Shown piece by piece: positions 10,736-44,571 of a stretch of 44,658 nt of DNA. Source of the DNA: Candidatus Coprovivens sp. (GTDB lineage Bacteria > Bacillota_I > Bacilli_A > RF39 > UBA660); contig JBJFGS010000036.1 of the NCBI GenBank assembly GCA_051892935.1, positions 68,408 to 113,065 of the forward strand, in the 5' to 3' direction. Position 1 is the stretch's first letter. Every line of letters starts with the position of its first letter. The translations under genes and the position numbers were made by a program. The notes beneath the pieces are model-generated. The model searched no databases and was not told where the DNA came from. It saw only the letters and a program-made list of their open reading frames with translations.

Positions 10736-10795
10736 ATAATCACAACCTATATTTAATACTAGTATAACAAAAAAAGATGTATAATAACATCCTTT

Positions 10796-11944: not shown

Positions 11945-12069
11945 TACAAGCCCTCCTATTCTTAATCATTATATCATAAAATTCAAAAAGCTATAGTTTT
12001 TTTTAATAAACATAGTGTTGTTTTTTTCATCAATATATATTATAATAATTATAGGTAAAAGGTGGTAAT

Positions 12070-12618
12070 ATGGATAAAAGAATAATAAATACAAAGAAAA
12101 AATTAACTAATTCTTTATTAGAATTATTACAACAAAAAAAAATTAAAGACATAACAGTATTAGAACTATGTAAATTAGCAAACATTAATCGAACAACATT
12201 CTATAAATACTATAAAGATGTTGATGACTTAGTATTAAGTATAGAAGAATCATTAATATCAGAATTAGAAAAAAACATAGTCGATATCAAAAGAAATTAT
12301 TTAATATCATTTACAAGTAAAATAATAGAAACAATAGCATCTCATAAAGAAATATATACTAGAATACTTGGTGAAAATGGTGATCACACTTTCTTAAATA
12401 GAATACTAAATCTAGTATACGATCAAAGTCTTACAGAATGGCAAAAATTATTAAGAAAAGCAACTAACGAAGATTTAGAAAAAATATATAGTTTTATTGT
12501 AGATGGTACAATAGGAATAGTTAATGAATGGATAAAAAATAATTGCCAAGAAGAACCAAACAATGTTGCAATATTTATAAACAAAATATGCATGAGTGGT
12601 TTAAGCAGTTTTATCTAA
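12070..12618 (+). CDS. TetR/AcrR-family regulator
   Basis: DKRIINTKK...ITVLELCKLANINRTTFYKYY; divergent from fucO. Confidence 0.92.
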   Translation: MDKRIINTKKKLTNSLLELLQQKKIKDITVLELCKLANINRTTFYKYYKDVDDLVLSIEESLISELEKNIVDIKRNYLISFTSKIIETIASHKEIYTRILGENGDHTFLNRILNLVYDQSLTEWQKLLRKATNEDLEKIYSFIVDGTIGIVNEWIKNNCQEEPNNVAIFINKICMSGLSSFI

Positions 12619-12620
12619 TA

Positions 12621-12649
12621 AAAAAGCGTTTCACAATCGAAACGTTTTT
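12621..12649. terminator. Bidirectional terminator
   Basis: aaaaagcgtttc-N6-gaaacgttttt. Confidence 0.7.
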
Positions 12650-13416
12650 TATAAAACAATCATCATAATAGTTAATAATAAAAAGAAAATAATTGTTGGT
12701 ATAAATATAAGTAATAATACTTTATTAAAAGTTATACTAAAAATTCTTATTCTATTATATCCCAAAGAATAATATAACTTATTATTCTTTTTTTCATCTA
12801 TAATAACATTTACAATTGAAATTAAAAATAATAAAATAAACAAAAACAATAAAATTCTAATAATAATATTAAAAATATAAATAAAATTTTTATAATTATT
12901 ACTATCAATATTCACTTCGTAAACAATTGGTTCAACTTTATAACTATTTTTAATAAAATTAGATGTCTTTTCTGCATCAAACCAGTTTTCTAAACTAATA
13001 AAATAATAATACTCTTTAACATTATTGTTTAAAAAATCATATAAAGAATTATTTTGCACAATATTAAATTCACTCATTATTGTATATTGAATTGTATATT
13101 TGCCAATTGTACATTTAACTCTTTCTCCAGAATCATTTCTAATGATTGGTGTATTATCTACAATAAAAACTTCTGTCAAATCACTATAACAATTAGCATA
13201 TAAAGCCTTATTATAACTTTTTACATTTTGTTCATTACTTAAATCAATTTCTTTTTCTGTAATAAAATAAATAAACGACTTACTATAAGCTTCATTGCCT
13301 TTAGCTATTATACATTCTTTCGCTATAAGTAAAAAAAAGAATAATATACTAAATGATATAAAAATCCATAAATAAATTTTAGTAACTTTCCTTTTTAAAA
13401 AAACTCTATAAATCAT
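12649..13416 (-). CDS. ABC transporter permease (FtsX-like, short)
   Basis: N-terminal TM, extracellular loop, LYYSLGY motif and C-terminal TMs; in operon with the ATPase. Confidence 0.7.
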   Translation of the reverse strand: MIYRVFLKRKVTKIYLWIFISFSILFFFLLIAKECIIAKGNEAYSKSFIYFITEKEIDLSNEQNVKSYNKALYANCYSDLTEVFIVDNTPIIRNDSGERVKCTIGKYTIQYTIMSEFNIVQNNSLYDFLNNNVKEYYYFISLENWFDAEKTSNFIKNSYKVEPIVYEVNIDSNNYKNFIYIFNIIIRILLFLFILLFLISIVNVIIDEKKNNKLYYSLGYNRIRIFSITFNKVLLLIFIPTIIFFLLLTIMMIVL

Positions 13417-13427
13417 AAAATCACCAT

Positions 13428-14687
13428 TTATTTCATCGCTAACAACTCTTGTATACTATAATTAAAAATCTTTTTAAAGCTTGATTTTATAATCAAATAA
13501 ATTATGAATATAAATAGAATCAATAAAACTGCTATTAAAACATAAGGAACATCTAAAATAACATTATTATATGTTATTTCAGCCCAAAAAGTATAAGTTA
13601 AAAAGTTTAACGCTACAAAATATATTAATAATGATATAATATAGCAAATAACAATTAAAATCGTATTTTCTTTAAAATTTAATAATATAATATCTTTTTC
13701 ATCATAACCAATTGCTTTTAAAATTCCTATATTATTTAATCTACTCATATTCTTCTTTGATATAAAACTATATAAAATATTTAAGGTCAAAATAATAACA
13801 ACAATCCCAATAACTATAGGAATTATTAACAACATATTCATAAAAGTAAAATCTGTATAAGAATAAGGATAATATTCAATATTCATTCTTTTTAATTCAT
13901 CTAAGACAGAGAAAATATTGTCTTTTGAATCGATTACTACAAAATAATCATAATATTTACTATATTCTTTTTCAATTAAATTACCCTTTTCATCATAGCT
14001 ACCAACCCATCCAGCATATTTAGATGATATTTCGTTATATGTTTCCATATCTGTATAACAAGTATTAGCAGTTTCCATATATTTATTTTCATAAGACCCA
14101 ACAATTTTTAAAGTAATACTTTTTCCATCTAAATCTTCATTAGAAGAAATAACTTCAATCTCTTTTCCTATAAATTTGCTACTTGGAATAAACAAATTTC
14201 TGTACATTCGATCATCAAATTCATGAGGATAAAATGTATCTGAACAAACTAATTCATATTTATTTTCTAAATTAGTTCCTTTTTTTATTTTTATATCATC
14301 TTTATTAAGTAAAACTTTTAAATATAATATTCCTTCTTCACTCTCTATATCAAATGTCGATACTTCAGTTCTACTCCCAAAATAATACTTTTCATTCACT
14401 ATCGATTCAACATGTTCAAGATTCTTTATCATCCCAATTTGTTCTTCAGTAAATTCAACATCTCTTAATGTATGATTAATATCATCATCAATTACTTCAT
14501 GAATTATCTTATAAGTTCTTCCATCAGCTAAATTTGATATTCTATTTTTATTATTTACACTAAATTGAACAATAGTTAAACAAGTAATTAAAATCAAAAA
14601 TATAATCGTTAATACGATTAACAAAACAATATTTTTCTTTTCGAACAATCTATTTCTAATAATGAAAAATTGGTCTTTAAAACTCAT
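13428..14687 (-). CDS. ABC transporter permease (MacB/FtsX family)
   Basis: TM plus large extracellular domain plus IGILKAIGY and three more TMs. Confidence 0.88.
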   Translation of the reverse strand: MSFKDQFFIIRNRLFEKKNIVLLIVLTIIFLILITCLTIVQFSVNNKNRISNLADGRTYKIIHEVIDDDINHTLRDVEFTEEQIGMIKNLEHVESIVNEKYYFGSRTEVSTFDIESEEGILYLKVLLNKDDIKIKKGTNLENKYELVCSDTFYPHEFDDRMYRNLFIPSSKFIGKEIEVISSNEDLDGKSITLKIVGSYENKYMETANTCYTDMETYNEISSKYAGWVGSYDEKGNLIEKEYSKYYDYFVVIDSKDNIFSVLDELKRMNIEYYPYSYTDFTFMNMLLIIPIVIGIVVIILTLNILYSFISKKNMSRLNNIGILKAIGYDEKDIILLNFKENTILIVICYIISLLIYFVALNFLTYTFWAEITYNNVILDVPYVLIAVLLILFIFIIYLIIKSSFKKIFNYSIQELLAMK

Positions 14688-19647: not shown

Positions 19648-21705
19648 ATGTTAATAAAATCAACAGCAATTCAACGATTATTAAGAGAAAACCCTATGTT
19701 AAAAGAAAGAAGATTCGGTCTTCCTTACGTTGGAGCAAGACTAGATAAAGAAGAATTTAATCCTACAGTTCAAGAAATTACAGATGCAATTGACTTTTAT
19801 GGATATAAAGTACGCGATGAAGATATTGTAAAGAAAAAAGACATAAACTTAGGTGATGGAAATCCTTTAAAATACGAGCCATTTCCACCAGCTATTGAAG
19901 AAATGATAAAATCACTTAGTTCTGGAGATATGTATAAATACCCATACACAGAAGGTGATGACAATATAAGAAAAGAATTATTAAAATACATAGAACAAGA
20001 AGGATTTATCAATACAGAACCATACGATTATGAAGACATTGATGAAAAAGGACTATCTATTCATAATATTACTTTTCTACCATCTACCTCAATTACATTT
20101 AATATTATAATAAATATTATTTCTAAACCAGGTGATGTAATATTAATACCAGGACCAAATTATGGACTATTTACAATAAGAGCAGAAAGAGCTGGGGCTG
20201 AAGTTGAAATTCTTCCACTATCAAAAGAAGATAATTTCCTTGTAAACCCCGAAAAATTAGCTAATACAATTGATGAAATAAATAATAGTCTTCAAAGAGT
20301 ATATAACCGTCGTCATGGCTATGTTCCAAGAGTAGTAGCTTTTTTAAATACCAATCCTAGTAATCCTACAGGTAAAGTCATGGGTGAAAAAGAAATAGAT
20401 TTATTAACACAAATTAGTCAAATATGCTTAGAAAGAGGTGTATTTGTAATTGATGATATGGTATATCGAGATATTACTTACGACAAAAATAACATAGCTA
20501 AACCAATTGCAACAATACCAGGAATGTTTAGGAATACTATAACACTATTTGGATTATCTAAAAGTTATGGTATGGCAAGTCTTCGAGCTGGATTTCTAAT
20601 AGCAGATGAAATTATTATAAGAGAAGTAATAAATCGTATATTCCAAGAAATGGATTCATCTCCTGACATAGTAGGAAGAGCTCTAATGGGAGCATTCAAC
20701 ACAAGTGAAAAACGTAATATCGAATACAATAAATATTTCACAAAACTAAGAGATTTGTATCAAAATAAATATTTTATACTTAAAGCCCTAGTTGAAGGAA
20801 TAGATTCTATTCAAAATAAAAAACAAAAAGAAAAAATTATCAAAACAGTTGAAGAATATACATCAAAAACAGAATCTACTAAACTGCTAAAAGGACTACC
20901 TTACACAAAATTTCCTGAAAATTTAGAACCAGATGCCGGTTTTTTTGCAATTCTAGACTTCACAGAGCTAAAAGAAAAAACATATAAAGGTAAAACAATA
21001 AAAACTGAAAAAGACTTACTAGAATTTTTCTACAAAACGAATAGATTGCGTTTCTTAATTGGTCAATCATTCTCATGGCCATATCCTAAAGAGCTAGTAG
21101 GAAGAATAACATATGCTCTTGAAGATAAAGAACTTATAGAAGCATTAGCCTTAATAAACAATTCATTACAACAACTAGTGATAGAAAACTCATATCAAAT
21201 AAGACTTAATCGTATAGAAGATCAAGAAGAAATGGCCAAAATTAAAGTAGATAGTTGGCAAGAAACATACAAAAATATTATAGATCAAAACTATTTAAAA
21301 GAACTTAACTACCAAGAACAAACAGAAAAATATATTGCCAGCTTTAACGAGTACAAAAATTCTGTTCTAGTAGCTGAAGACATAAATAGTCATAAAATAT
21401 TAGGATATGCATGTTTCTCAACAGATATAAACGAATATGCTGACTCTGAACTAGTTAGCATATACTTAGATAAAAAATATCTAAAAAAAGGTATAGGTTC
21501 ATCACTTTTTAGAGAAGTAGCAAAAGAACTAAAAAAATATAATAAAAAAACAATGATAACATGGTGTTTAAAAGACAATAAAACAGCAATAAGCTTTTAT
21601 GAAAAATTAGGCGGACTAAAAAAATTTGATAAAATGGCCAAAATTGGAAACAAAATATATCAAGAATATGGATATATTTTCAGCATTGATGACATTACAA
21701 AATAA
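19648..21705 (+). CDS. PLP-dependent class I/II aminotransferase fused to a C-terminal GNAT acetyltransferase
   Basis: NPSNPTG, DDMVY and SKSYGMASLRAG (PLP lysine); C-terminal GIGSSLF and N.TAISFYEKLG. Confidence 0.88.
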   Translation: MLIKSTAIQRLLRENPMLKERRFGLPYVGARLDKEEFNPTVQEITDAIDFYGYKVRDEDIVKKKDINLGDGNPLKYEPFPPAIEEMIKSLSSGDMYKYPYTEGDDNIRKELLKYIEQEGFINTEPYDYEDIDEKGLSIHNITFLPSTSITFNIIINIISKPGDVILIPGPNYGLFTIRAERAGAEVEILPLSKEDNFLVNPEKLANTIDEINNSLQRVYNRRHGYVPRVVAFLNTNPSNPTGKVMGEKEIDLLTQISQICLERGVFVIDDMVYRDITYDKNNIAKPIATIPGMFRNTITLFGLSKSYGMASLRAGFLIADEIIIREVINRIFQEMDSSPDIVGRALMGAFNTSEKRNIEYNKYFTKLRDLYQNKYFILKALVEGIDSIQNKKQKEKIIKTVEEYTSKTESTKLLKGLPYTKFPENLEPDAGFFAILDFTELKEKTYKGKTIKTEKDLLEFFYKTNRLRFLIGQSFSWPYPKELVGRITYALEDKELIEALALINNSLQQLVIENSYQIRLNRIEDQEEMAKIKVDSWQETYKNIIDQNYLKELNYQEQTEKYIASFNEYKNSVLVAEDINSHKILGYACFSTDINEYADSELVSIYLDKKYLKKGIGSSLFREVAKELKKYNKKTMITWCLKDNKTAISFYEKLGGLKKFDKMAKIGNKIYQEYGYIFSIDDITK

Positions 21706-21734
21706 AGACAAATAGATTCCTATTTGTCTTTATT
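21701..21734. terminator. Bidirectional terminator
   Basis: aataaagacaaatag-attc-ctatttgtctttatt. Confidence 0.8.
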
Positions 21735-21793: not shown

Positions 21794-22054
21794 CTATTGA
21801 TTATTCATAACACTTACAATAGTATCTAAAAAATTTTCAATATCCCGCATAGATTCATGACTAGAACGAACCTTTTTAGCATATTGACCAAAAGATTGCT
21901 CGTATTTTTCTGCATAATCACCTTGAAAAGATGAATTTAATGAATCCATTGATTTTATGATACTATCCAAATTATCTATACAATCCTTATTAATTTTCTC
22001 CATTTCTTGTTTCCATGAAGCCATTGCATCAGTATCAACATAAACATTAGCCAT
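21794..22054 (-). CDS. WXG100/ESAT-6-like protein
   Basis: 86 aa, VYVDTDAM N-terminus, two amphipathic helices with central SSFQGDYA. Confidence 0.7.
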   Translation of the reverse strand: MANVYVDTDAMASWKQEMEKINKDCIDNLDSIIKSMDSLNSSFQGDYAEKYEQSFGQYAKKVRSSHESMRDIENFLDTIVSVMNNQ

Positions 22055-23048
22055 TCATAACAGCCTCCTTACCTATTGGATTAGCAAAAATTGTTCCACC
22101 ACGACTATTTTTAAATTCACTTAAAGATAAAGTTCTAGTTCCCCAATCCGTTTGAGCTACTGCAAAACTATCTGAAGTACCATTGTAATTACCATCTTGT
22201 ATTACTATCTTATCATTAGCTTCATCTACTTCAATTACTATTCCCACATGTCCATATTGTTCATTTAAACCAGTTGAAAACACAGCACCAGCTACAGGAG
22301 TATCAGATTGATAAAATTTATCTCCATGAGCTTTTATCAACTGCGATACGCAACCATTTCCATTTGTCGTAAAGCCAGGACTATACCCATATATCTCATA
22401 AAACCTTCCCCAAGCAAACCATGTACATTGCCCAACATTACTATAAGCATAAGGATTTTTACCAATCCACGCATCAGTCTCCGCAAAATTAGGATTTCTA
22501 TTCTCATCATTAATAATACCAGAAGAAACAGAAACAACAAATTTACTCATATCAAAACCACTATCAATTTTACCAAAATAATCATTAGCATTATTAAATA
22601 TATCCGCAGTACTAACAACTTGAGTTGCAGATATTATAGAATACTGCTGACTATAGGTATCAGTAATACTATTCAATTTATTATTAATTTCTAATTTTAA
22701 ACTATCCTTACTTGTTACATTAGAAGATATTAAGCCGCTTAATCTTTCATATTCATTAGAATAATTACTAGCATCTTTATCCAATAAAGATCTTTCTCTA
22801 GTATACTTATCAATATTATCAACAGCAATATCATATTCATCTATTTTAGATAATACCTCTATCATACTATTCAATAGTTTAATTTGTGAATTTAACGCAG
22901 TATTTGAATTTTTAATATTACTACTTTGTTTATCACATGCATTACCTTGCCACAAAGAAGCTAAATCTAATTCAGATATATATTCATTTAACTGAGTTAA
23001 ATAGCTAATTTTATTACTAATTTGAGTACCATAACTAGAATAAGCCAT
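22047..23048 (-). CDS. WXG-like helical N-terminus plus CHAP peptidoglycan hydrolase
   Basis: LWQG in the N-terminal hairpin; C-terminal GQCTWFAWGR, GHVGIV and IQDGNY; no signal peptide. Confidence 0.85.
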   Translation of the reverse strand: MAYSSYGTQISNKISYLTQLNEYISELDLASLWQGNACDKQSSNIKNSNTALNSQIKLLNSMIEVLSKIDEYDIAVDNIDKYTRERSLLDKDASNYSNEYERLSGLISSNVTSKDSLKLEINNKLNSITDTYSQQYSIISATQVVSTADIFNNANDYFGKIDSGFDMSKFVVSVSSGIINDENRNPNFAETDAWIGKNPYAYSNVGQCTWFAWGRFYEIYGYSPGFTTNGNGCVSQLIKAHGDKFYQSDTPVAGAVFSTGLNEQYGHVGIVIEVDEANDKIVIQDGNYNGTSDSFAVAQTDWGTRTLSLSEFKNSRGGTIFANPIGKEAVMNG

Positions 23049-23063
23049 ATTATCACCTTCTTA

Positions 23064-23354
23064 CTATGAATAATTCGTTTCATGTTCAACAATATTTTCA
23101 GACTTTTTAATCAAACATTGAACATAATTTTCTAAACCAGAAACAAAATTATTATATGAAGATATATATCCCTTTGCTGTATTTATATATGATGTTTTAA
23201 CATCATCATCAAGCCAAGAACTAGAACCATCCATGGAATTAACTAGTTTTTCTAACGCTTTAACATTTTCTTTATATAAAGATATAGTGTCTTTAACGTC
23301 ATTTACTATTACATTTATTCCATCTTCATCATGTAAAAAAACATCACTTGCCAT
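23064..23354 (-). CDS. WXG100-like protein
   Basis: About 96 aa helical hairpin with central SSSWLD; start reassigned to MASD behind AGGAG. Confidence 0.6.
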   Translation of the reverse strand: MASDVFLHDEDGINVIVNDVKDTISLYKENVKALEKLVNSMDGSSSWLDDDVKTSYINTAKGYISSYNNFVSGLENYVQCLIKKSENIVEHETNYS

Positions 23355-23369
23355 TTTACACACTCCTAT

Positions 23370-24476
23370 CTACAAAGTAGTAACTTCACTTTTAGAATTA
23401 TTCGAACTATCACTTTCATCCATTTTAGCTGCATCAGTTTTAATTAATTCAAAAAAGTTACCTTTATTTACAATTTTTGTAATATTTTGATTCCATTCAG
23501 GGTGACATGTAGAAGTCCCAGGATTAACATGCATCGGACTACCATACCAAGAACTTTTATCTACTACAAATTCAACAACACAGTGTCCATTATTATGTCC
23601 CCATTCCGTACATCCGGCATCACTTTGACTCTTTATATCACCTATTACACATTTTATAACAGTTCCATCTTCTTGATAAACATCTATAAAATCACCAACA
23701 TTACCAAATGTTGTAGTAGTAGCAACAACATATCTATCTCCTATTTTAGCAAATCCTTCTTCATCAAAATTCATTCCAGCAGCTTCACGTAATCTATATT
23801 GTCTAGAAGAAACAGACGTAATACATTGCCACCCCATATATGAATGAACACTACCTAAACCTTCAGGTAAAGTAACAGTAACACCTTCAATATCCTCTAA
23901 ATACTTTTCAATACCTTCATAATTATATACTCCTCCAGCAGGAACATTATAATCAGCACTAGTTAAAGAACTGGATGAAAAATTATTATTATATACGGTT
24001 GTTCCACTAGGACCGGTACTATAAGAATAAGTATAGTTACCAGAAGAAGAACCAGAATAATTACTATAAGAACCAGAAGATGACAATGAAGTTGCAGTCG
24101 CACCTGCAGTTGACCAAGTTACTTTTTCAGTAGAAGTTTGAGCAGCTGTTGTTAAAGTATCAACGGAAGTATTTGGAACTTCAACATCAGATTCATCTTG
24201 AGTCAAATTTTCACTATCAATCTCCATAATACATTTTACATATGTATTCATATTTTGGGAAACATGTTCTAAATCAGTATACACATTTCCAATACTATCA
24301 GCAATTATGTTAGCCTTTTCAACTAATGAAGAAAAATCTTTATGACTAGGAATAGATTTTAAAGATTCTTCGACAGATGATATAGAATCACTTGTATCAG
24401 ATACTTTAGATATCAATTCAGTAGTTAAAGATTCCAATTGACTCTTATTAACTTTTATTACACTCATTACATTCAC
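23370..24476 (-). CDS. Helical WXG-like N-terminus, Ser/Thr-rich linker and putative 3D/double-psi-barrel-like cell-wall-active domain
   Basis: IKVNKSQLESL start; linker; C-terminal DRYVVATTTTFGNVGDFIDV..DG..IKCVIGDIK. The C-terminal fold call is inference. Confidence 0.55.
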   Translation of the reverse strand: MNVMSVIKVNKSQLESLTTELISKVSDTSDSISSVEESLKSIPSHKDFSSLVEKANIIADSIGNVYTDLEHVSQNMNTYVKCIMEIDSENLTQDESDVEVPNTSVDTLTTAAQTSTEKVTWSTAGATATSLSSSGSYSNYSGSSSGNYTYSYSTGPSGTTVYNNNFSSSSLTSADYNVPAGGVYNYEGIEKYLEDIEGVTVTLPEGLGSVHSYMGWQCITSVSSRQYRLREAAGMNFDEEGFAKIGDRYVVATTTTFGNVGDFIDVYQEDGTVIKCVIGDIKSQSDAGCTEWGHNNGHCVVEFVVDKSSWYGSPMHVNPGTSTCHPEWNQNITKIVNKGNFFELIKTDAAKMDESDSSNNSKSEVTTL

Positions 24477-24573
24477 CTACACTACTCTAATTATAACATA
24501 ACAATCAATTACATTTAAAAAAAATAACAAGAATCAAAAACTTGTTACTTATTTTTATAATTTATTATATATT

Positions 24574-25161
24574 TTAATTATTTTGATTATTTATATCATT
24601 ATTTGAACTTGATTGAATAACATTGTTACTTGATTGTATAGTTTGTGGATAAACATCAACATTACTATACAATCCATTAGATTGTTCAAATACTTGAGTA
24701 TCTAAAATTTTTTGCTTTTTTCCATTTTTAATACTAGACACCATAATAAATATTCCTGCCAAAGTAAACATAACAGCAATTAATGGTAAAAAAATATTAG
24801 TACTATCGGATGCCCAAATAGCATCTTGTGGATTACTAGGGTTATACTTAATTGAAACTTCTGTCCCTATACTCTTTGGCATACTTGAATATACATTTGA
24901 GACTTTCTGATAAGTTTGTCCATCTACTTCATACTCAACAACAATAGCTTGTAATCCCTCATCATCAGATACATAATCAACAACTTTTGAAGTAATCTCA
25001 ACAAAAGTTTTATTCTTTTCACTATAAGTTTTAATAGTTAAAAAAGAAAAATATAACAATGCAATACCAACAACGAAAAAAATCAATCCAAACAAAACTC
25101 CATGCCAAGGTTTCATTTGCTTAGGTTTAACATTACTACCAGTTGAAAGATTTACATTCAT
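24574..25161 (-). CDS. DUF3592-like membrane protein
   Basis: TM, then IVVEYEVDGQTY...IGTEVSIKYNPSNP, then TM; start reassigned behind AAGGAGGTG. Confidence 0.8.
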   Translation of the reverse strand: MNVNLSTGSNVKPKQMKPWHGVLFGLIFFVVGIALLYFSFLTIKTYSEKNKTFVEITSKVVDYVSDDEGLQAIVVEYEVDGQTYQKVSNVYSSMPKSIGTEVSIKYNPSNPQDAIWASDSTNIFLPLIAVMFTLAGIFIMVSSIKNGKKQKILDTQVFEQSNGLYSNVDVYPQTIQSSNNVIQSSSNNDINNQNN

Positions 25162-25299
25162 AAAGCACCTCCTTTTCAAAAAATATGGATTCAATCTTAA
25201 AACTATAAAACAATTAAGAAAGCTTCCTTCTATTATGTAATTATATCATACATAATTATAATTTAATAATATGTAATATTTAAAAAACAATTATATTAA

Positions 25300-26247
25300 T
25301 TAATCACATACAGCATTAGCAAATTCAAGACATAACCCAATAATATATTCTTTCCTCTTAAGTTCATTTAACCAATCATTTGGTAGATCCATATAATAAA
25401 TACCACACAAACCACCAACTAAAGCCGCTATAGTGTCAGTATCATTACCAAGTTTTATTGCATTAATAACACAATTTTTATAGTTATCCTTACTCATAAA
25501 AACCCACATAACAGCTTCTAAAGTATCAACAACAAATCCTAAACCACTTACATCTTCACTATCTAACAAAGTAATATCATCATCAATTAATCTCTTATAA
25601 TAACTTCTAGTATCTTTATCAAACATACTATAATCATAACTTCTTATATATAAATAAGCTACTTCTTTACTACTGCCTTTTAGTAACTGAATAACAAACA
25701 ATACATATATAAAACAACCCATAACGCTTATATTATGACTATGTGTTAACGAAGATATATCTTTAACTAAATTAAACACTTCACTTTCACTAAGATTTCT
25801 ATAATAACAATAACAAGCAATAGGTAATATTCTCATTAAACTACCATTCCCATTGTCTTTAAATTCTCCTTGACCACAATTAATAGGATTCTTATATTGC
25901 TCAAACTCATCCCTATATCTATAACACTTTAAGGCATTTAATGTTGTTCTACCTATCCCAAAAGTATAACCATTAATATTAAAATCTTTTTTATCAGCCC
26001 ACAACATAAAATTATCCATAATACTTTTATAACTAATAATACCTTTATTATCTATTATAGATTTCATAGTTGCTATAACCATACTACTATCATCAGACCA
26101 AGTCCCTTTTGCTACATTATGTGAACCATTGCCTATCATATCAACAGTACCTATGTATTCTCTTTTTTTAAACTCATAAGGTACACCTACCGCATCACCT
26201 AATATAAAACCTAAAATACCATTTTTTATAGATTCTTCTTTATTCAT
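25300..26247 (-). CDS. ADP-ribosylglycohydrolase (DraG/ARH family)
   Basis: GDAVGVPYEF, GTWSDDSS, GNGSLMRILP, LTH and GNDTDTIAALVG; start reassigned to MNKEES. Confidence 0.93.
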   Translation of the reverse strand: MNKEESIKNGILGFILGDAVGVPYEFKKREYIGTVDMIGNGSHNVAKGTWSDDSSMVIATMKSIIDNKGIISYKSIMDNFMLWADKKDFNINGYTFGIGRTTLNALKCYRYRDEFEQYKNPINCGQGEFKDNGNGSLMRILPIACYCYYRNLSESEVFNLVKDISSLTHSHNISVMGCFIYVLFVIQLLKGSSKEVAYLYIRSYDYSMFDKDTRSYYKRLIDDDITLLDSEDVSGLGFVVDTLEAVMWVFMSKDNYKNCVINAIKLGNDTDTIAALVGGLCGIYYMDLPNDWLNELKRKEYIIGLCLEFANAVCD

Positions 26248-26519
26248 AGTTACACCTACTTCATTTATCCACAATATTTTACGCAAAAACACGGCAAATA
26301 AAAAAATCAAAAATTATATAAAATACCATACTTCTTTCTTATACAGAAGTATAACATATATATTACATTATTTTTTCACTCCTTTTTTAAGCAACAAAAA
26401 AATCGTGAAATCCATTATAGAATCACGATTTATTATATGTTTAACTCCAAAAAGTTAGAGTAAATTCACATATGGCACGATTTTAAAGGCAATTCCCAAT
26501 TTTTATTTTTACAGCTTTC

Positions 26520-27364: not shown

Positions 27365-27438
27365 TGGCAGGGGTAGCAGGAGTTGAACCCACATCAGCGG
27401 TTTTGGAGACCGTTATTCTACCATTGAACTATACCCCT
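27365..27438 (-). tRNA. tRNA-Trp (CCA)
   Basis: Reverse complement AGGGGTATAGTTCAATGGTAGAATAACGGTCTCCAAAACCGCTGATGTGGGTTCAACTCCTGCTACCCCTGCCA; anticodon CCA, encoded 3' CCA. Confidence 0.97.
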
Positions 27439-27551
27439 AAAAAAGTAAGCAATTTCATTATATCACAATTTTATTTTTGTGCAAGTTTTTTTAGCTATAT
27501 AGTCTTTAATAATAAGATAAAAATGTTATAATGTACTTGAGGATGATTTAT

Positions 27552-28553
27552 ATGCAAATATTAGAAACTTTATCAAATACAATACTAAATAAAATGGAAT
27601 TATATAGATTAGCTCTTATTATAAAATATATAATCAACATACTATTTATAGTAGTACCAATTATTATAATTATACTAAGTATAATAGATATATCTAAAAC
27701 CATTTTCAAACCATATAACTTTAAAGATAATATAAAAAAACCAGTAAATAGAATAATAGCTGGATTAGCATTATTTCTTTTACCAACTGTTATTCAATAT
27801 TGTTTTTCATTAATTGACACTTATGATAATTCAAAAATACTTTCTTACTATAATGAAGCTAGTATAGAAAAAATAAACACCTTAAAAGAAAAATACAAAA
27901 TACAAAAAAAAGCTGAAGATGCTAAAAAAGAAGCAGAAAATAAAGAATTATATTTAAAACAAGAAGAAGAAATTAGAAAAAGAAATGAACAGCTAGAACA
28001 AATAAGAGAAGCACTAAAAAATGAATATGGAGAATCAAGTGGAAGTTATAATGGTGATTCAGTATCAAGTGGAACTTATGGCAGTGTAAAATTTGAAAAT
28101 GGAGTATTTTATATTCCAAATCAACGAGCTACAAGTGATGCAGACATTCCAAAACAAGCTGGACAATATGGTTTAAATCCAGTTTTTTGGGAAAGACTAA
28201 GTGCTTTAATATCAGATGCCAAAGCTAACGGATACAACATTACTGTAACAAGTGGATGGAGATCTTATTCAAGTCAAAGAAGTCTTTGGGATAACTCAAA
28301 CCGCCCATGCAGTGAAAGAAACAAATGGGTTGCATGTCCTGGAGGATCAAGACATGGATTTGGCATTGCAGCAGATCTGAGCTTTAATGGTACTAGTTGT
28401 AGTGGTAACTGGGATTGTAATAAAGCTGCAGCTTGGGCTCATGCTAACGCAAGCAACTATGGCTTAACTTTCAGAATGTCTTGGGAACCATGGCACATAG
28501 AACCAGATCAAATAAGCGGAGGAAGCTTTGGAAGTTGTACCGCAACTTGTTAG
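27552..28553 (+). CDS. Membrane-anchored M15B (VanY-like) D,D-carboxypeptidase/endopeptidase with two-TM N-terminus and coiled-coil stalk
   Basis: SGWRS..Q, SRHGFGIAAD and EPWH zinc-peptidase motifs. Confidence 0.88.
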   Translation: MQILETLSNTILNKMELYRLALIIKYIINILFIVVPIIIIILSIIDISKTIFKPYNFKDNIKKPVNRIIAGLALFLLPTVIQYCFSLIDTYDNSKILSYYNEASIEKINTLKEKYKIQKKAEDAKKEAENKELYLKQEEEIRKRNEQLEQIREALKNEYGESSGSYNGDSVSSGTYGSVKFENGVFYIPNQRATSDADIPKQAGQYGLNPVFWERLSALISDAKANGYNITVTSGWRSYSSQRSLWDNSNRPCSERNKWVACPGGSRHGFGIAADLSFNGTSCSGNWDCNKAAAWAHANASNYGLTFRMSWEPWHIEPDQISGGSFGSCTATC

Positions 28554-28563
28554 GAGTGATAAT

Positions 28564-29217
28564 ATGAAAAAAGTTTTATTATTGTTAATAACTTTAGTTT
28601 TATTAACAGGTTGTACTGCAACATATAATATAAATATTAAAGACGAAACAATAGAAGATTCTATAAAGATATATACAGATAGCAAAAATGTTCAAAGTGC
28701 TGACAAAAAAACTATAACTCAATTCTCAGAAAAATTAGGTGAATGGGAAAGAGGATACGAATACTACAAAAGAGAGCTATACACAGCAGATAAAATAACA
28801 GGATACAATTATACGTACACTTTTAATTACGAAGAATATGATGCAATGAGTCAATTAAGAAAATGTTACAAAGACTTTAAAATCACTAACGAAAATAATA
28901 ATATAACACTAAGTACTAGCAATGAATTCTTATGTAAAACATATTATGAAGAAATAGACAAAATAGAAATTAACATTTCAAGTGAATATAAAATAACAGA
29001 ATCTAATGCCGATATAAAAGAAAACAATATTCATACTTGGAACATAAATAAAAATAACTATAAAAATAAACCAATAATAATAAAAATAAACAAAAATACT
29101 GAAAGTAAAAAAGAAGAAAAAAAGAAAAAAAATAACAACACATTCCAATTATTAATAACTATACTATTTTTCACATTAGTTCTTATTCTAATAATTAGAA
29201 AAAAGAAAAATAAATAA
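28564..29217 (+). CDS. Lipoprotein with C-terminal TM anchor
   Basis: MKKVLLLLITLVLLTGC lipobox behind AGGAG; C-terminal hydrophobic helix plus basic tail. Confidence 0.82.
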   Translation: MKKVLLLLITLVLLTGCTATYNINIKDETIEDSIKIYTDSKNVQSADKKTITQFSEKLGEWERGYEYYKRELYTADKITGYNYTYTFNYEEYDAMSQLRKCYKDFKITNENNNITLSTSNEFLCKTYYEEIDKIEINISSEYKITESNADIKENNIHTWNINKNNYKNKPIIIKINKNTESKKEEKKKKNNNTFQLLITILFFTLVLILIIRKKKNK

Positions 29218-29234
29218 TTGCTAGGAGTGATACT

Positions 29235-31241
29235 ATGATAAATAATAATCAATCAAATTTATTTGATAACATCGATTGGGATAATTTTGGCTGGAATGAT
29301 ATAAATTGGTCAACAGACACTTCAATACAAAATGATAATACAAATGTAGATATAGAATACTTATTTAATCATAGTTCAAAAAATGAATTTTCAGAATTTC
29401 TTACAAACGATTATAATGGTAAAATAAAACAATTATTAAGCACTGAAGGTATAGAAATTGCCAATAATTCCCCTATGTTTTCAGAAAGAATTAACTACAT
29501 ATTAACATTTTCAAAATATAAAGAAGATATTGTAAGCAATCCACAAATAATCAAGTTAATGTTCAAAGATATGGGAGCATACTATGCAAATCTGCGACAA
29601 TTAAGCGTTGAAACATCTTTAATTATATTTAATCAAGCCCTAGAAACAAACAATGATATGTTAATAAGACAACTATTTGAATATTTAAATCCAAAAACCC
29701 AAGAAATTGCCCTAAATAAATTAACTTTCCACTCCAATATATTAGCTTACCTAATAAGTAACTCAAGTCCATCAATAGTAAATAAAATAATCAATAATCA
29801 AATGATAAATCTAGCAAATCCCAACATAAATTATAGACAACTTTTTGAGCACGCCAAAGAATTACAAGGAAAAGCAAAAGAAGCAAAAAATACAAATGGT
29901 ACATCCATAGAAACAATAGCAATAAATCCGAGACTACTAACTAAAGAAGTAGCTAAAAATATATTTGAAAAGTACGATATATTCCAAGTTAGAAGAATAA
30001 TAAACGATGCAACATACTGCACAGACTCAAATATCTTAAATGAATACATTAAAAAACAAGAAGATTTAATTATAAGTTCAGCAAGTGAAGAAAAACTAGT
30101 TTCTCCATATAAAGAAATATTCGATTTATTAAAACAAATTACAATATATGAAGAAAATAAAGAATATGAAAAAGCAGATAACTGTCAAAAACAATTGCGT
30201 AACATATTAAATAATCAAATACCAAAATATGAAGAACAAACAATAAGAGAATGTTTAAGAAAAGACACTAAAACACTATTACAAGAGTTAGAAAAACTAA
30301 GTAACTTTAAAATAGCTAATATAATAATAGATTACCATTTTGAAGAAAACTTCCATAATGTAATGATTGATATAGAAGAACTACTAAATCTATATTATTC
30401 TGGAAATATAGACTTACCTGAAGAAAAACTATATTTATATCAAGATATAAGAAATATTGATTATTTAACAAGAGAACAACAAATTGAATTACATGAAAAA
30501 TTAAAAAACATAAATATAATAGAAATGTTTTATGATGATATGTCATACGCAAGAAAAATCGTAAGACAAGCTATTAAAGATTCGGCTCTTACAAAAGAAG
30601 AACTACTTCAATATAAAGATGAAGAATTATCAGAAGAATATGGTGTAGATGTCTATAGTATTCAAAACAATCCATTCTTTGCTATAGTAAAATCTGGTAA
30701 ACACAGTGATGATTATCTTCCAACCGGTCACTCCTATTCACTAGTTGGTAATGGAGGAATTGCAACGTGGCAAGATACTAATAACTACGTTTATGATTCA
30801 GAAGATTTAAATCCAGATCAAATAATTCATCTATATCCTTATGATTCATTTACACTAGCCAAACCAAACTCTCTAAATTCATCTCCAACCACAAGAATTA
30901 ACGTCCTAATGATGCCAGACGAATTAGTAGAATATGACTATAGTTACAATGAAATATTAATATTAGAAAAAGGCTCTAAAAAAACAGACATAGATGAATC
31001 AATACCTAAATTAAAAAGAATTGCTAAATATTGTGTAGACAAAATAACAGAACAAGATATAAAAGAAGCCCAAATTCAAGGAATTGGAATACTTCTAATA
31101 AATTCAAAAGAATGTACAAAATCTGACAATAAAGAAAGAGGACTCTATCGTCATAGACTAAAACCATTCGAAAATCAAGGAGAAATAGTAGATTACTTCG
31201 ATAGTGACTATCATCCAGAAAGATACGAAGTCAAAAGATAA
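29235..31241 (+). CDS. Large hypothetical protein, helical N-region, possibly ART-like C-terminal domain
   Basis: AGGAG RBS, terminator after the stop; C-terminal HSYSLV and SYNEILI motifs. Confidence 0.7.
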   Translation: MINNNQSNLFDNIDWDNFGWNDINWSTDTSIQNDNTNVDIEYLFNHSSKNEFSEFLTNDYNGKIKQLLSTEGIEIANNSPMFSERINYILTFSKYKEDIVSNPQIIKLMFKDMGAYYANLRQLSVETSLIIFNQALETNNDMLIRQLFEYLNPKTQEIALNKLTFHSNILAYLISNSSPSIVNKIINNQMINLANPNINYRQLFEHAKELQGKAKEAKNTNGTSIETIAINPRLLTKEVAKNIFEKYDIFQVRRIINDATYCTDSNILNEYIKKQEDLIISSASEEKLVSPYKEIFDLLKQITIYEENKEYEKADNCQKQLRNILNNQIPKYEEQTIRECLRKDTKTLLQELEKLSNFKIANIIIDYHFEENFHNVMIDIEELLNLYYSGNIDLPEEKLYLYQDIRNIDYLTREQQIELHEKLKNINIIEMFYDDMSYARKIVRQAIKDSALTKEELLQYKDEELSEEYGVDVYSIQNNPFFAIVKSGKHSDDYLPTGHSYSLVGNGGIATWQDTNNYVYDSEDLNPDQIIHLYPYDSFTLAKPNSLNSSPTTRINVLMMPDELVEYDYSYNEILILEKGSKKTDIDESIPKLKRIAKYCVDKITEQDIKEAQIQGIGILLINSKECTKSDNKERGLYRHRLKPFENQGEIVDYFDSDYHPERYEVKR

Positions 31242-31268
31242 AACAAAGTTAAACTTTGTTTTTTTGTA

Positions 31269-31294
31269 ACAAAAAATATATATTAACATAAGTT
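31269..31294 (+). promoter_or_regulatory. Putative sigmaK/sigmaE-type mother-cell promoter
   Basis: AC-N16-CATAAGTT upstream of cwlJ; short motif in AT-rich DNA. Confidence 0.4.
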
Positions 31295-31310
31295 ACTATA
31301 GGTGAATTAC

Positions 31311-31733
31311 ATGATAATAAAATATAATACAAAAGAACTAGATTTATTAGCGAGAATAATGCGTGCAGAAGCGCTTAATGAAGGAAACCTTGGAATGCTA
31401 ATGGTCGGAAACGTTGTTATAAATAGAGCTTTAGCTTCATGTTTAACATTTACAGATATTAGAACAATAACAGAAGCAATATATCAACCAAACCAATTTG
31501 TAGGAACAAAAAGCTCTTTATTTCAATCAGCTGCAACAACAACAGAAAAAAATCTAGCTAAAAGAGTCATAAATGGTGAATACTATCATCCAGCTACACA
31601 CTCATTATGGTTCTATGCTCCAGGAGAAAACAAAGACTGTAAATCTACCTGGTATGATCAACAACTATCTGGAAAATATAAAAATCACTGTTTTTACGAA
31701 CCAGAAAAAGGAGTTTGTAAAGAATTATATTAA
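31311..31733 (+). CDS. cwlJ: Spore cortex-lytic enzyme CwlJ (Hydrolase_2)
   Basis: LLARIMRAEA..EG..GMLMVGNV.INR, IYQPNQF, SLWF, HCFY.P...C...Y; matches recalled B. subtilis CwlJ along its length. Confidence 0.88.
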   Translation: MIIKYNTKELDLLARIMRAEALNEGNLGMLMVGNVVINRALASCLTFTDIRTITEAIYQPNQFVGTKSSLFQSAATTTEKNLAKRVINGEYYHPATHSLWFYAPGENKDCKSTWYDQQLSGKYKNHCFYEPEKGVCKELY

Positions 31734-31767
31734 TTATGTTATAATAAAACAAAGTAGGAATGATAAA

Positions 31768-32736
31768 ATGACATATGCAAGCTATATAAATATACTAAAG
31801 TCTAAAAGCGAACAAATAAACAAACTAAAAAATAACATATCAAAAATAGACTTAGAAAATATTTGGAAAGGAACCGCAAGTAACAAGCAAAAAAATCAAT
31901 TATCAACTATCCAAAAAGAAATAGAAGCACAACTAACCCAATTATCTAACATAAATGAAGCAATGAAAAAAATAGATGATTATGATATAACAGAAGAAGA
32001 AATAAAAAATTACAAAAATCAATTAAATTCCTTAGATAGTGATGATAAAAACTATCTAAAACAGAAAGAAGAAATTCAAGAAAAAATAAACAACTTAATT
32101 AAAGAAAAAGAACAATTAAAAATAAATATAGAAAACAAACTTTTTTCAATAAACAAATCATATCAATCACAAATAACACAAATTAAAAATATAGAAATAG
32201 TAAAAACTTTTAATCTACTAAAAGATGCAGAAAATAATTTTAAAGATTTAAATTTCAATATTATTGCATCACAAAATTCAGATAAAGAAAAATCATCAAA
32301 TTCTGGAACAATAACAATAGAAAACATAGGTACACCATATGAAAAAGAACCTACTCCAGGAAAATCAGCACAAAAACTACATGTATATCATGATAATACC
32401 AGATTATATGATGATGCTTATATAACAATTAAAAAAGGTGAAACAATAAGGTTAAACATGAACTTAACAGAGAATTGCGGAGAAGTTAAACTACTAAAAA
32501 GAACTTCTGCTGATGGGGAAGAAAACTGGAAACAATACTTTTCCGCTCACTCAGAACCATTTGTTAATAGAGATGACTCATCAACATTTATTGCAACAAA
32601 TAATTATGATTGGGTTATAACAGGAAATAAAGCAACAAAAGGATATATAACTCTTTCTCAAACATCATCTCATAGTACAAATAATGGAAACAACTATAAA
32701 AGTATGTATAGAATTCACATTAAAGTAGTTGAATAA
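31768..32736 (+). CDS. WXG-like helical N-terminus plus unknown beta-rich C-terminal domain (paralogue of 22047-23048)
   Basis: Start reassigned to MTYASY behind AGGA; IWKG motif; N-terminal ~140 aa aligns by eye with the CHAP protein. Confidence 0.78.
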   Translation: MTYASYINILKSKSEQINKLKNNISKIDLENIWKGTASNKQKNQLSTIQKEIEAQLTQLSNINEAMKKIDDYDITEEEIKNYKNQLNSLDSDDKNYLKQKEEIQEKINNLIKEKEQLKINIENKLFSINKSYQSQITQIKNIEIVKTFNLLKDAENNFKDLNFNIIASQNSDKEKSSNSGTITIENIGTPYEKEPTPGKSAQKLHVYHDNTRLYDDAYITIKKGETIRLNMNLTENCGEVKLLKRTSADGEENWKQYFSAHSEPFVNRDDSSTFIATNNYDWVITGNKATKGYITLSQTSSHSTNNGNNYKSMYRIHIKVVE

Positions 32737-43272: not shown

Positions 43273-43584
43273 CTAACTATATAAGTTTTGACTAGCATCA
43301 GCTTCTAATGATTGAGCAGTATCTTGAGTTGATTTGCTAGCACTAGCAATAGTATCAGCAAAATTTTGAACCAACGAAATGTAAGCTTCAAATCTTTGCT
43401 TCTTTAGATCCTCAAAAGTAGCTTCAAAAGTATCAGCAGCCGTACCAACAAAATCACCATTCATAATTAAAGTACGAACTACATTAGCAAAGTTTTCTAA
43501 ATCACTTTCCATGTTATTACGTCCGTTAACTATTTCTGTAACAGCATCACCAACACTACTAAATTTAATATTTGTATTAGCCAT
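43273..43584 (-). CDS. WXG100/ESAT-6-like protein
   Basis: About 103 aa helical hairpin, central GDFVGTAADTF; start reassigned to MANTNIK. Confidence 0.75.
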   Translation of the reverse strand: MANTNIKFSSVGDAVTEIVNGRNNMESDLENFANVVRTLIMNGDFVGTAADTFEATFEDLKKQRFEAYISLVQNFADTIASASKSTQDTAQSLEADASQNLYS

Positions 43585-43888
43585 TATTAGCACCACCTAC
43601 TCTAGTAATAATATCTTCTTCGTTTTCTTCTACTTTAGAAGCAGCTCTTGCACAATAATCTGCATACCCACAAATAGCATTATACATAGCCTCTAAATTT
43701 GGCCTTTGTTCAAATATTCTATTCGCAATAACAGTTGCTGCTGGACTTGTCCACTCACTTCCAACAAGTGTATCAACTACTAAAAACATTTTTTCATATT
43801 CACTTTTAAATGATTCTGCAGTCTGTCTAATTTTATTAGAACCATCACTTAAAGCACCTGTACGAGCTCCAAAAATATCTCCTGACAT
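43577..43888 (-). CDS. WXG100/ESAT-6-like protein
   Basis: About 103 aa, central SEWTSPAA, C-terminal YADY..AA..VEENEE; GGGAGG RBS; overlaps the next gene. Confidence 0.75.
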   Translation of the reverse strand: MSGDIFGARTGALSDGSNKIRQTAESFKSEYEKMFLVVDTLVGSEWTSPAATVIANRIFEQRPNLEAMYNAICGYADYCARAASKVEENEEDIITRVGGANNG

Positions 43889-43983
43889 TAATCTCATCCT
43901 CCCATATATTTCCTAATTAAAGTATATCAATTATTTTTTTATTTTCCAACAAAAATGTCAAATATTTAACATTAATAAACATT

Positions 43984-44571
43984 TTATTTAATTGTTACTA
44001 TTTCTCCAACAAGACCTTTATAAGAGTCAACATCCGCAGATCCTGATGTTAATTTTCCATAAGCAGAACTATCTGCTCCTGGCAATCCCTCTAATAATTC
44101 CATTAACTTTTTATATTTCTTTGCTTTTTCTTCAGCCGCATCCCTCTGTGATATCAAAGAACTTAAACTTGTTGTCTCTGTTTTAGAATCATAAGAATTA
44201 ATTCGACTATTTAAATTGTCAACACTTTGTTTAGCACTTTCATATTCTGCCTTAAAAGTATCATAATCATCGGTATCCAATTTACTCTCACCTTCCATAT
44301 AATCAGATAAAGATCTATTAGACTCCTTTATAGCATTTATTAAATTATCAGCAGCAGATATTCTATGATTCATTAATATTGAATAATTATTTAATTGCTT
44401 TCTAATAGCATCAAAAGAATCCCCTATTAAAACTTCTTGCGATGAAGAAATAAAGTCCTGAATAGCTCTTATTACAGCTTGAGCATCCTCTTTATCTTTC
44501 ATCAAATTATTTACTCCCACCGAACTATTTGCTGCTTCTAAATCTGACTTATTAACTAACATCATAACCAC
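43984..44571 (-). CDS. LXG-like helical protein
   Basis: All-helical; EVLIGDSFDAIR (LxG) at the hairpin turn. Confidence 0.6.
   Translation of the reverse strand: MVMMLVNKSDLEAANSSVGVNNLMKDKEDAQAVIRAIQDFISSSQEVLIGDSFDAIRKQLNNYSILMNHRISAADNLINAIKESNRSLSDYMEGESKLDTDDYDTFKAEYESAKQSVDNLNSRINSYDSKTETTSLSSLISQRDAAEEKAKKYKKLMELLEGLPGADSSAYGKLTSGSADVDSYKGLVGEIVTIK

Follow-up and report, generated by a model that had tools for sequence, protein, structure and literature searches.

A candidate type VII-like cassette pairing cell-wall hydrolases with WXG100-like partners in an uncultured RF39 gut bacterium

How would peptidoglycan-directed enzymes reach a cell wall if they carry no Sec signal peptide, and what would be the role of a small helical protein encoded directly behind each of them? 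These questions are raised by four consecutive genes, here named gA, gB, gC, and gD, on the minus strand of a 44,658-nucleotide stretch of contig JBJFGS010000036.1 from Candidatus Coprovivens sp.; this whole stretch is referred to below as the window. Coprovivens has been placed in the order RF39, family CAG-1000 (PMC8035907). An earlier note, made from the letters of the window, had taken the genes for a type VII-like operon in which carriers of wall hydrolases alternate with WXG100 partners; the observation itself is confirmed below, and the interpretation is supported in part. Our follow-up analysis suggests that the operon encodes two cargo-plus-partner pairs for the type VII-like export of wall hydrolases that probably act on the producer itself, a proposal whose chances we judge to be evenly balanced.

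Two long-short gene pairs and their predicted domains

The four open reading frames (ORFs) extend from 24467 to 21794 in the layout of a single operon, and on this ground they are predicted to be co-transcribed. A Shine-Dalgarno-like site accompanies each gene (AAGGAGG in the case of gD), the intergenic gaps do not exceed 15 nt, the start of gD overlaps the stop of gC by 8 nt, and no additional gene lies inside the operon. The tight long-short-long-short coupling described in the earlier note was therefore recovered, with one adjustment. Since AGGTGA lies a few bases upstream of the ATG at 24467 and the closest database homolog has 365 aa, we favor this start for gA over the GTG at 24476, which would give 368 aa. 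The highest 19-residue Kyte-Doolittle mean in the four proteins is 0.94, compared with 2.7-3.3 in neighboring membrane proteins, and we therefore predict no Sec signal peptide, membrane helix, or anchor in any of them, as had been claimed for the signal peptides of the two long proteins.

The C-terminal part of gC is a CHAP domain, as had been recognized earlier for one of the long proteins; the Pfam CHAP model (PF05257) matches residues 202-287 with an E value of 1.6e-12 and 48.2 bits against a cut-off of 26. The AlphaFold model of gC (mean predicted local distance difference test score [pLDDT], 82.6) consists of three helices, a poorly ordered linker, and a CHAP fold. Its best Foldseek matches are the hub CHAP of phage phi812 (9eum, E 4e-5) and the tail tip of phage Andhra (8ej5, E 5e-4), and endolysins and PcsB (4cgk, E 1.7e-3, with a root-mean-square deviation [rmsd] of 38 Å) are also among them. 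In an alignment of the gC family, W33, G35, C208, and H267 are invariant in all 49 sequences, C208 and H267 being the predicted Cys/His catalytic pair of CHAP. The helical head of gC thus has a W-x-G motif of its own, which the earlier note had overlooked, and the Pfam WXG100 model touches this domain with an E value of 0.029. Mean identity to the window protein is 71% in the CHAP domain versus 35% in the N-domain.

Database searches recovered 478 proteins of the gC family at E ≤ 0.001. Among the 120 relatives listed, 90 align over at least 84% of the query, and precomputed matches to both PF06013 (WXG100) and CHAP are recorded for 4; the other listed matches have only the CHAP domain in common, which many of them join with Lysozyme_like. 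A phmmer search with the gC head against 1.84 billion cluster representatives returned only 15 proteins at E ≤ 1e-3, so the head family is small. Their C-termini contain CHAP in four cases (P0002, P0072, P0077, and P0262), NlpC/P60 with a weaker CHAP match in P0258, and a Hydrolase_2 match below the cut-off in P0259. No match was obtained in the C-terminal part of P0252, P0254, P0255, and P0257, and five of the 15 proteins are short (89-172 aa). Given that the recognizable C-termini are CHAP, NlpC/P60, or Hydrolase_2, the gC-type head appears to carry wall hydrolases wherever the C-terminal domain can be recognized.

In gA, the helical hairpin is followed by a disordered linker (residues 87-158) rich in Ser, Thr, and Asn and by a conserved beta-rich domain that we call domain X. 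The AlphaFold2 model has a mean pLDDT of 74.3, with values of ~90 for both the hairpin and domain X. No Pfam or NCBIfam family matches gA, and domain X has no Pfam family in any of the 45 sequences of the gA family alignment, for which we judged the 25 most-matched of the 38 Pfam families matched. Across 44 relatives, domain X has a mean identity of 79% to the window protein, versus 42% for the hairpin, and six Asp residues are invariant in the alignment. Domain X is 48% identical (E 2e-35) to part of a protein of Eggerthella phage LE1-1 annotated as "tail lysin", and other relatives carry it on one chain with a CHAP or Hydrolase_2 domain on its C-terminal side or a Phage_lysozyme2 domain on its N-terminal side. 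Foldseek weakly related the gA model, with E values of 0.04-0.4 throughout, to a double-psi beta-barrel (DPBB) group that comprises designed DPBBs, sugarwin, and kiwellin as well as expansin (E 0.037) and MltA (E 0.35); no 3D/DPBB family was found on the window gA or among the 25 most-matched Pfam families of the 45 members. Taken together with the model, these comparisons suggest that domain X is probably a peptidoglycan-cleaving or peptidoglycan-binding module. The description of both long proteins as helical N-termini joined to wall-hydrolase-type C-termini is thereby borne out, by CHAP in gC and by the phage-tail-lysin-like domain X in gA. The gA hairpin also drew a WXG100 group in Foldseek (3zbh, 3o9o, and 2vrz; TM[target] 0.62-0.66, E 0.06-0.3), and the WXG100 matches of the model include Geobacillus EsxA (E 0.063), GBS1074, and Staphylococcus aureus EsxA. 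BLASTP found nothing between gA and gC or between gA and a 387-aa ORF.

Both small proteins had been called WXG100-like, and this stands for gD, while gB remains below threshold. gD scores 29.2 bits with Pfam WXG100 (PF06013), above the cut-off of 27.3. Its orthologs in three other loci (L001, L003, and L004, see below) score 28.1, 26.0, and 29.4 bits, such that two pass and one falls just below. The NCBIfam WXG100_ESAT6 model gives gD 27.4, which is below its cut-off of 44.85. In the gB family, 11 of 12 members match YwqH-like (best E 1.9e-4) and 3 of 12 match WXG100 (best E 1.6e-4), and those matches with printed scores lie below the cut-offs; we therefore describe gB as a putative, sub-threshold WXG100/YwqH-like small helical protein. 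The WLD and FQG motifs reported earlier are real and conserved, since W47-x-D49 is present in 12/12 gB sequences and F43-Q44-G45 in 5/5 gD sequences. In addition, all 12 gB sequences share an F6-x-x-x-[D/E]10 motif. Profile searches against solved structures with gA, gB, and gD yielded coiled-coil noise or EsxA/EsxB at E ~0.5.

The small proteins are also related to the heads of the long ones. hhalign aligned residues 6-90 of gB with residues 4-90 of gA at 91% probability (E 9.8e-7). Hidden Markov models (HMMs) were then searched against 3267 ORFs from the window and all retrieved loci: the gA-head HMM recovered gB orthologs (E 5e-6 to 2e-4), the gB HMM recovered gA orthologs (E 5e-5 and 0.004), and the gC-head HMM recovered three gD orthologs (E 9e-4 to 3e-3). 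The direct hhalign comparison of gD with gC is weak (E 0.0016) and places FQG on WQG. Collectively, these profile comparisons indicate that the head of each long protein is a paralog of the small protein encoded directly downstream (gA/gB and gC/gD). Such a pattern is that of paralogous hairpin pairs like EsxA/EsxB, except that in each pair an enzyme is attached to one of the two partners.

Table 1. Positions of the cassette genes, their domains and signals, and other features of the window
Feature	Position	Strand	Description
gA	23370..24467	-	365 aa: helical hairpin, disordered S/T/N-rich linker, domain X
gA N-terminal helical hairpin	24210..24467	-	residues 1-86; helices 8-37 and 48-85
gA domain X	23418..23990	-	residues ~160-350; conserved beta-rich domain
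gB	23064..23354	-	96 aa from ATG 23354; 99 aa if GTG 23363
gC	22047..23048	-	333 aa, ATG 23048: W-x-G three-helix N-domain, linker, CHAP amidase/endopeptidase domain
gC N-domain	22644..23048	-	residues 1-135; helices 3-25, 36-87, 96-131; W33-x-G35 in first turn
gC CHAP domain	22074..22478	-	residues ~191-325; invariant C208 and H267
gD	21794..22054	-	86 aa, ATG 22054; WXG100-family, F43-Q44-G45 replacing W-x-G
Promoter-like TTTAAA-18-TATAAT with TG extension	24490..24519	-	just upstream of gA
Hairpin, 12-bp stem, then T-run	21704..21731	.	between gD and convergent aminotransferase-GNAT gene; read from sequence
Low-G+C segment	17506-18995		1490 bp, 22.8% G+C
DUF3592 protein	24574-25194	-	206 aa, two membrane segments
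ADP-ribosylglycohydrolase	25300-26310	-	Pfam E 1.1e-56
tRNA-Trp	27365-27438	-	anticodon CCA
Carboxypeptidase	27531-28553		membrane-anchored, VanY/LdcB-like
Lipoprotein-like gene	28528-29217
668-aa protein	29235-31241		no family
Hydrolase_2 gene	31302-31733		143 aa, SleB/CwlJ-type, no signal peptide
Third gC-type head protein	31768..32736	+	322 aa from M66 of ORF 31573..32736
Second type VII-style cluster	42696-44571	-	runs into window end
WXG100-like gene pair	43273..43897		106 and 107 aa, overlapping
Helical L-x-G protein	43984..44571		195 aa, L-I-G

As to signals in the DNA, the promoter-like site upstream of gA is a weak, consensus-only match, as 28 such sites occur in the region against 28.2 expected. 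A low-GC hairpin with a T-run ends the gene upstream of gA, ahead of this site. The hairpin downstream of gD is a probable two-way terminator. The automatic terminator scan gave only one weak site, inside gA, and missed this hairpin because its stem has few G-C pairs.

Conservation and genomic surroundings

A profile-guided genome scan returned 79 loci, of which only four (L001-L004) contain the W-x-G head, the other 75 being CHAP-only. Conservation of gene order had been proposed as a check in the earlier note, and the full long-short-long-short order is indeed kept in L001, L003, and L004, which are all from RF39-type uncultured gut Bacilli and are the three loci besides the window that hold all four genes. 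L002 is truncated inside gC and keeps gC-gD. Since the order recurs in these three loci, we do not regard the arrangement as due to chance. L004 belongs to Candidatus Coprovivens excrementavium and L002 to a Coprovivens species. The match lists of gC and gA have twenty apparent shared sources, which hints at a wider linkage of the two genes.

In the window, L003, and L004, the cassette adjoins the same aminotransferase-GNAT gene, and in the window and L001 it adjoins the same HD-domain gene. Given these shared neighbors, the cassette occupies a fixed chromosomal site beside housekeeping genes and is not a mobile element. What follows gD varies (no gene in the window, one for a zinc-ribbon protein in L001, and one for a DHH-family protein in L003 and L004), and there is therefore no conserved immunity gene beside the cassette, in agreement with the earlier observation that the operon itself contains none.

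The closest CHAP relatives outside the gC family lie in L058, L079, L040, and L026, and the CHAP-only loci from Tenericutes-like genomes resemble conjugative type IV secretion system (T4SS) clusters. L058, from a complete 1.26-Mb genome of uncultured Bacilli, contains such a cluster (2271-13992), in which Pfam identified a VirB4-like ATPase and a VirD4 coupling protein together with a pilin-like protein and a 629-aa hydrolase combining SpoIID and CHAP. The same run of ORF sizes is seen in L079, L040, and L026; the Pfam scan covered L058 only.

Besides the cassette, the window holds a third gC-type W-x-G head protein, a WXG100-like gene pair, and an LXG-like protein, and we therefore consider the organism to be rich in type VII secretion system (T7SS)-type substrates. 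The third head protein, recovered by the local HMM with an E value of 1.1e-32, has a beta-rich C-terminus without an assigned family. Upstream of it lie the four genes from 27531 to 31733 (Table 1). The N-terminal membrane part of the carboxypeptidase resembles pilin-like small proteins encoded near the CHAP genes of L058, L079, L040, L026, L057, and L064, and in L058 those proteins belong to the conjugative T4SS cluster.

The second type VII-style cluster consists of the L-x-G protein (Pfam DUF6847 at E 3e-4, below the cut-off), the two overlapping WXG100-like genes (NCBIfam ESAT6_2 at E 2.3e-7; Pfam WXG100 at 24.4 bits, below 27.3), and a 138-aa gene. Solved-structure profile searches with three proteins of this cluster gave the same result as those with gA, gB, and gD, namely coiled-coil noise or EsxA/EsxB at E ~0.5. 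Since the cluster runs into the window end, genes of a secretion apparatus may lie beyond position 44658.

The DUF3592 gene stands directly upstream of the operon, separated from it by the low-GC hairpin and the promoter-like site. Because the HD-domain gene directly precedes gA in L001, we excluded the DUF3592 gene from the cassette and as an immunity gene. Two genes upstream of the operon stands the ADP-ribosylglycohydrolase gene. The NCBIfam model that matches it best, that of the ADP-ribosylarginine hydrolase Tri1, gives 139.6 bits and so stays far below the cut-off of 490; Tri1 itself confers immunity to an ADP-ribosylating effector. The low-G+C segment contains no ORF of at least 60 aa under code 11 or 4, no Rfam family, and no tRNA. 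All genes of the window are open under code 11, and nothing indicates that TGA is read as Trp.

Possible export route and site of action

If the proposal is correct, the heads of gA and gC would each pack with their small downstream partner into an EsxA/EsxB-like helical bundle, and this bundle would be the export signal read by an FtsK/SpoIIIE-type (EssC-type) ATPase whose gene lies elsewhere in the genome. Once outside the membrane, CHAP would cut peptide stems or cross-links, and domain X would cut or grip glycan strands; together, they would form the kind of enzyme pair that phage tails and conjugative machines use for the local opening of peptidoglycan. On the wall of the producer, the pair could serve autolysin-like remodeling or, by analogy with the CHAP hydrolase EssH of S. 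aureus, could open the wall for envelope machines.

We are slightly inclined to accept the first part of this proposal, namely that gA and gC are exported by a T7SS-like route. Given export, we somewhat favor self-directed over antagonistic action, on four grounds: an immunity gene is missing, conservation of the payloads far exceeds that of the heads (71% versus 35% in gC and 79% versus 42% in gA), the locus is a fixed chromosomal site, and the RF39 lineage is predicted to have lost lyt/cwl genes but, in most species, to keep a wall. Such payload conservation is the reverse of what polymorphic toxins display. With regard to the last ground, a published reconstruction predicts the loss of most lyt/cwl endopeptidases in the ancestor shared by RF39, RFN20, and ML615J-28, and it predicts that most RF39 species retain a wall (PMC10868615). 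According to the same source, RF39 is predicted to be without some of the precursor steps and might depend on scavenged muropeptides (PMC10868615), and because of this predicted need, an outward-directed role stays open.

Several observations weigh against type VII-like export or against the functions assigned above. No FtsK/SpoIIIE (EssC) family or other secretion-machine Pfam family was found among the 48 window ORFs scanned and 34 flanking ORFs of L001, L003, and L004, a negative that covers the 44.7-kb window and those flanks, not whole genomes. The N-terminus of gA has no W-x-G, Pfam WXG100 is touched by just 2 of the 45 gA-family members (E ~0.07), and the turn is W-x-D in gB and F-x-G in gD instead of W-x-G. 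A conserved [YFW]xxx[DE] motif is absent from gD and from the N-domains of gA and gC, and the only one present, at residues 6-10 of gB, is N-terminal and not at the C-terminal end. The hhalign probability is 16% for gD against gC and 5%, which is not significant, for gB against gD. For the gA model as a whole, every Foldseek match has an E value above 0.001, and any helical hairpin resembles EsxA. The phage protein that shares domain X is a tail lysin by its depositor's label only, and the domain X assignment comes from comparison, its activity being a prediction. Finally, the Lap and Tap partners of known type VII cargo are encoded upstream of it, whereas gB and gD are downstream.

The absence of an immunity gene also bears on the possibility that the pairs are antibacterial type VII effectors that degrade the walls of competitors or release muropeptides from them, the producer being shielded by the chemistry of its wall or by immunity encoded elsewhere. 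This would fit with known large substrates of the T7SSb and T7SSa types, most of which are antibacterial toxins with small helical partners (PMC10765036, PMC11217815, PMC13444075), with a nearest likeness to enzymes that attack from outside (the CHAP domains of phage hub and tail tip, and the phage tail lysin), and with the need for muropeptides suggested for RF39 (PMC10868615). We nevertheless consider it unlikely, as no immunity candidate is conserved beside the cassette, where the downstream gene varies by locus, and as the payloads are not polymorphic and the site next to housekeeping genes is fixed. Equally unlikely, in our estimate, is that no type VII export is involved, and that gA and gC are PcsB/CwlO-like or sporulation-type hydrolases whose helical N-domains regulate or localize them, the small proteins being inhibitors or chaperones. 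No dedicated secretion system would then be needed for the enzymes to reach the wall, which they could do, for instance, from the mother cell in sporulation or germination, or by cell lysis. A coiled coil joined to CHAP does resemble PcsB: a profile match to 4cgk_A (E 9.8e-4) spans both the helical and the CHAP parts, and Foldseek relates gC to the same protein. The scanned ORFs include no EssC, and the third head protein of the window follows the SleB/CwlJ-type Hydrolase_2 gene, whose product is likewise free of a signal peptide. CwlJ and CwlC of Bacillus subtilis function without signal peptides. RF39 is, moreover, predicted to be spore-forming (PMC10868615). On the other hand, PcsB and CwlO have Sec signal peptides, and gA-gD have none; the Foldseek alignment to PcsB has the rmsd of 38 Å given above; gD is a WXG100 protein by a curated cut-off, and the invariant W-x-G of gC would have no role in a PcsB model. 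An ABC/FtsX-like pair is encoded ~7 kb away, and its ATPase scores under the cut-off of every listed NCBIfam equivalog, including FtsE. An FtsEX-PcsB system proper was rejected, since there is no signal peptide and no adjacent FtsEX pair, the nearest ABC/FtsX-like pair being generic.

Another possibility is that the cassette is a stranded, functionless fragment of a mobile element, such as a phage tail-lysin module or the hydrolase module of a conjugative T4SS. In this regard, the nearest CHAP relatives outside the family lie in conjugative T4SS clusters (L058 being the locus scanned), many of the matches listed join Lysozyme_like with CHAP, and domain X is present in a phage tail lysin. We regard this as very improbable, however, given that the cassette has neither phage nor conjugation genes at its flanks, be it in the window or in L001-L004, that gA has no match among 72,556 plasmids and matches only 2 of 50,697 phage records over domain X alone, and that no PHROG family matches gA, gB, or gD. 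None of the four ORFs is disrupted, and the catalytic residues do not vary between species with 46-76% identity. A prophage lysis cassette was likewise rejected, as a holin is missing, neither small protein has a membrane segment, and no phage genes are neighbors.

Returning to type VII-like export, we also considered a broader and rather doubtful extension of it, to which we attach less confidence than to the proposal itself. In RF39, wall-bearing but autolysin-poor, a type VII-like route might be the dedicated export path for housekeeping wall hydrolases, each paired with a WXG100-like paralog and needing no immunity, and domain X might be an undescribed peptidoglycan-cleaving family shared with phage tails. 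The small family of W-x-G heads would then carry peptidoglycan hydrolases only (CHAP, NlpC/P60, SleB-type, and domain X), whose task would be to separate cells, to open the wall for envelope machines, or to scavenge muropeptides, and not warfare.

Relation to known systems

Among the systems closest to the cassette are the LXG modules of T7SSb, such as those of Streptococcus intermedius Tel and B. subtilis YwqJ, in which a large protein without a Sec signal likewise joins a helical targeting N-domain to a C-terminal enzyme domain and has small WXG100-like helical neighbors of the Lap1/Lap2 or YwqH/YwqI type. In T7SSb LXG cargo, the Lap partners are encoded upstream and immunity genes downstream, whereas the cassette has one partner per cargo, no immunity gene, and conserved rather than polymorphic C-termini. 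The LXG domain (PF04740) gave no Pfam match at E ≤ 0.1 on gA or gC and was not among the 25 most-matched families of the 45 gA members. In B. subtilis, ywqH is the first gene of the LXG-toxin operon ywqH-ywqL, which includes ywqJ (PMC8321402), and the FxxxD motif of Lap1 is located near the end of helix 2 (PMC9600955). The LXG toxin activities listed in a 2023 review omit wall hydrolases (PMC10765036).

The two gene pairs are like EsxA/EsxB in being adjacent paralogous hairpins of ~90-100 aa with a W-x-G-type turn, and gD passes Pfam WXG100. They are unlike EsxA/EsxB in that one member of each pair is fused to a linker and enzyme of 200-280 residues, and in that the turn motif is degenerate in three of the four members (none, W-x-D, and F-x-G). 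PcsB and CwlO share with gC a helical coiled-coil N-domain followed by a C-terminal CHAP or NlpC/P60 domain, and weak profile and fold matches to PcsB were obtained; they are, however, exported by Sec, controlled by FtsEX, and have neither W-x-G nor a WXG100 partner gene. Conjugative T4SS hydrolases and phage tail lysins include the closest CHAP and domain X relatives and also combine glycan and peptide cleavage. They are parts of mobile elements with both activities on one chain, while the activities predicted here would lie on separate chromosomally encoded chains with WXG-type heads.

EssH resembles gC in being a CHAP wall hydrolase; it is tied functionally to type VII secretion and needs its N-terminal domain for function. 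EssH is exported by Sec with a signal peptide, whereas gC has none and does not adjoin apparatus genes. In S. aureus, EssH is a dedicated CHAP hydrolase needed for T7SSb assembly (PMC13059805, PMC10765036), and its gene stands at the T7SS locus in divergent orientation to esxA (PMC10765036). Reviews mention CHAP proteins at some T7SS loci, with their link to secretion described as not established, and treat the passage of type VII substrates through the thick Gram-positive wall, whether that of the producer or of the prey, as an open question (PMC10765036, PMC13492133).

In 2026, mycobacteria were shown to secrete by T7SS an arabinanase that has two small partners and a lipoprotein as its inhibitor, in a source that also names NlpC/P60 among the commonly predicted payloads of mycobacterial T7SS (PMC13444075). 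The Eat locus (EatA, TapA1/TapA2, and EatI) resembles the cassette in that a helical T7SS-type N-domain is attached to an envelope polysaccharide hydrolase with small helical partners. It belongs to Actinomycetota and ESX-4 and has two upstream partners and a dedicated secreted inhibitor, none of which applies to the cassette. Given the publication of the arabinanase, type VII cargo that cleaves the envelope is already a known idea. The suggestion that the operon is the best candidate for an undescribed system was therefore too strong, as helical targeting domains of the WXG/LXG type with small partners are known T7SS logic and a T7SS envelope glycan hydrolase was published in 2026 (PMC13444075). 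In the 2012 catalog of polymorphic toxins, Tox-NlpC/P60 is assigned to export by the type VI secretion system, Photorhabdus virulence cassettes (PVC), and TcdB/TcaC, not by T7SS (PMC3482391). Our literature search, with supplementary tables outside its scope, found no WXG- or LXG-headed CHAP or DPBB hydrolases of Bacillota and no type VII secretion in RF39.

If the proposal holds, hydrolases with WXG-type heads and WXG100-like partners of their own would link type VII export directly to wall cleavage. Domain X, which Pfam does not cover and which is seen again in multi-domain hydrolases and in the tail lysins of phages, would gain a function, and an aspect of the envelope biology of RF39, a gut order without cultured members that is known from metagenomes only, would be described. 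Compared with the systems above, what is new in the cassette is a head family apparently dedicated to peptidoglycan hydrolases, one paralogous partner per cargo encoded downstream of it, and a tandem of a probable glycan-directed enzyme and a peptide-directed one. Likewise new are the combination of neither immunity nor polymorphism, a domain X without a Pfam family, and the RF39 lineage in which the cassette is found.

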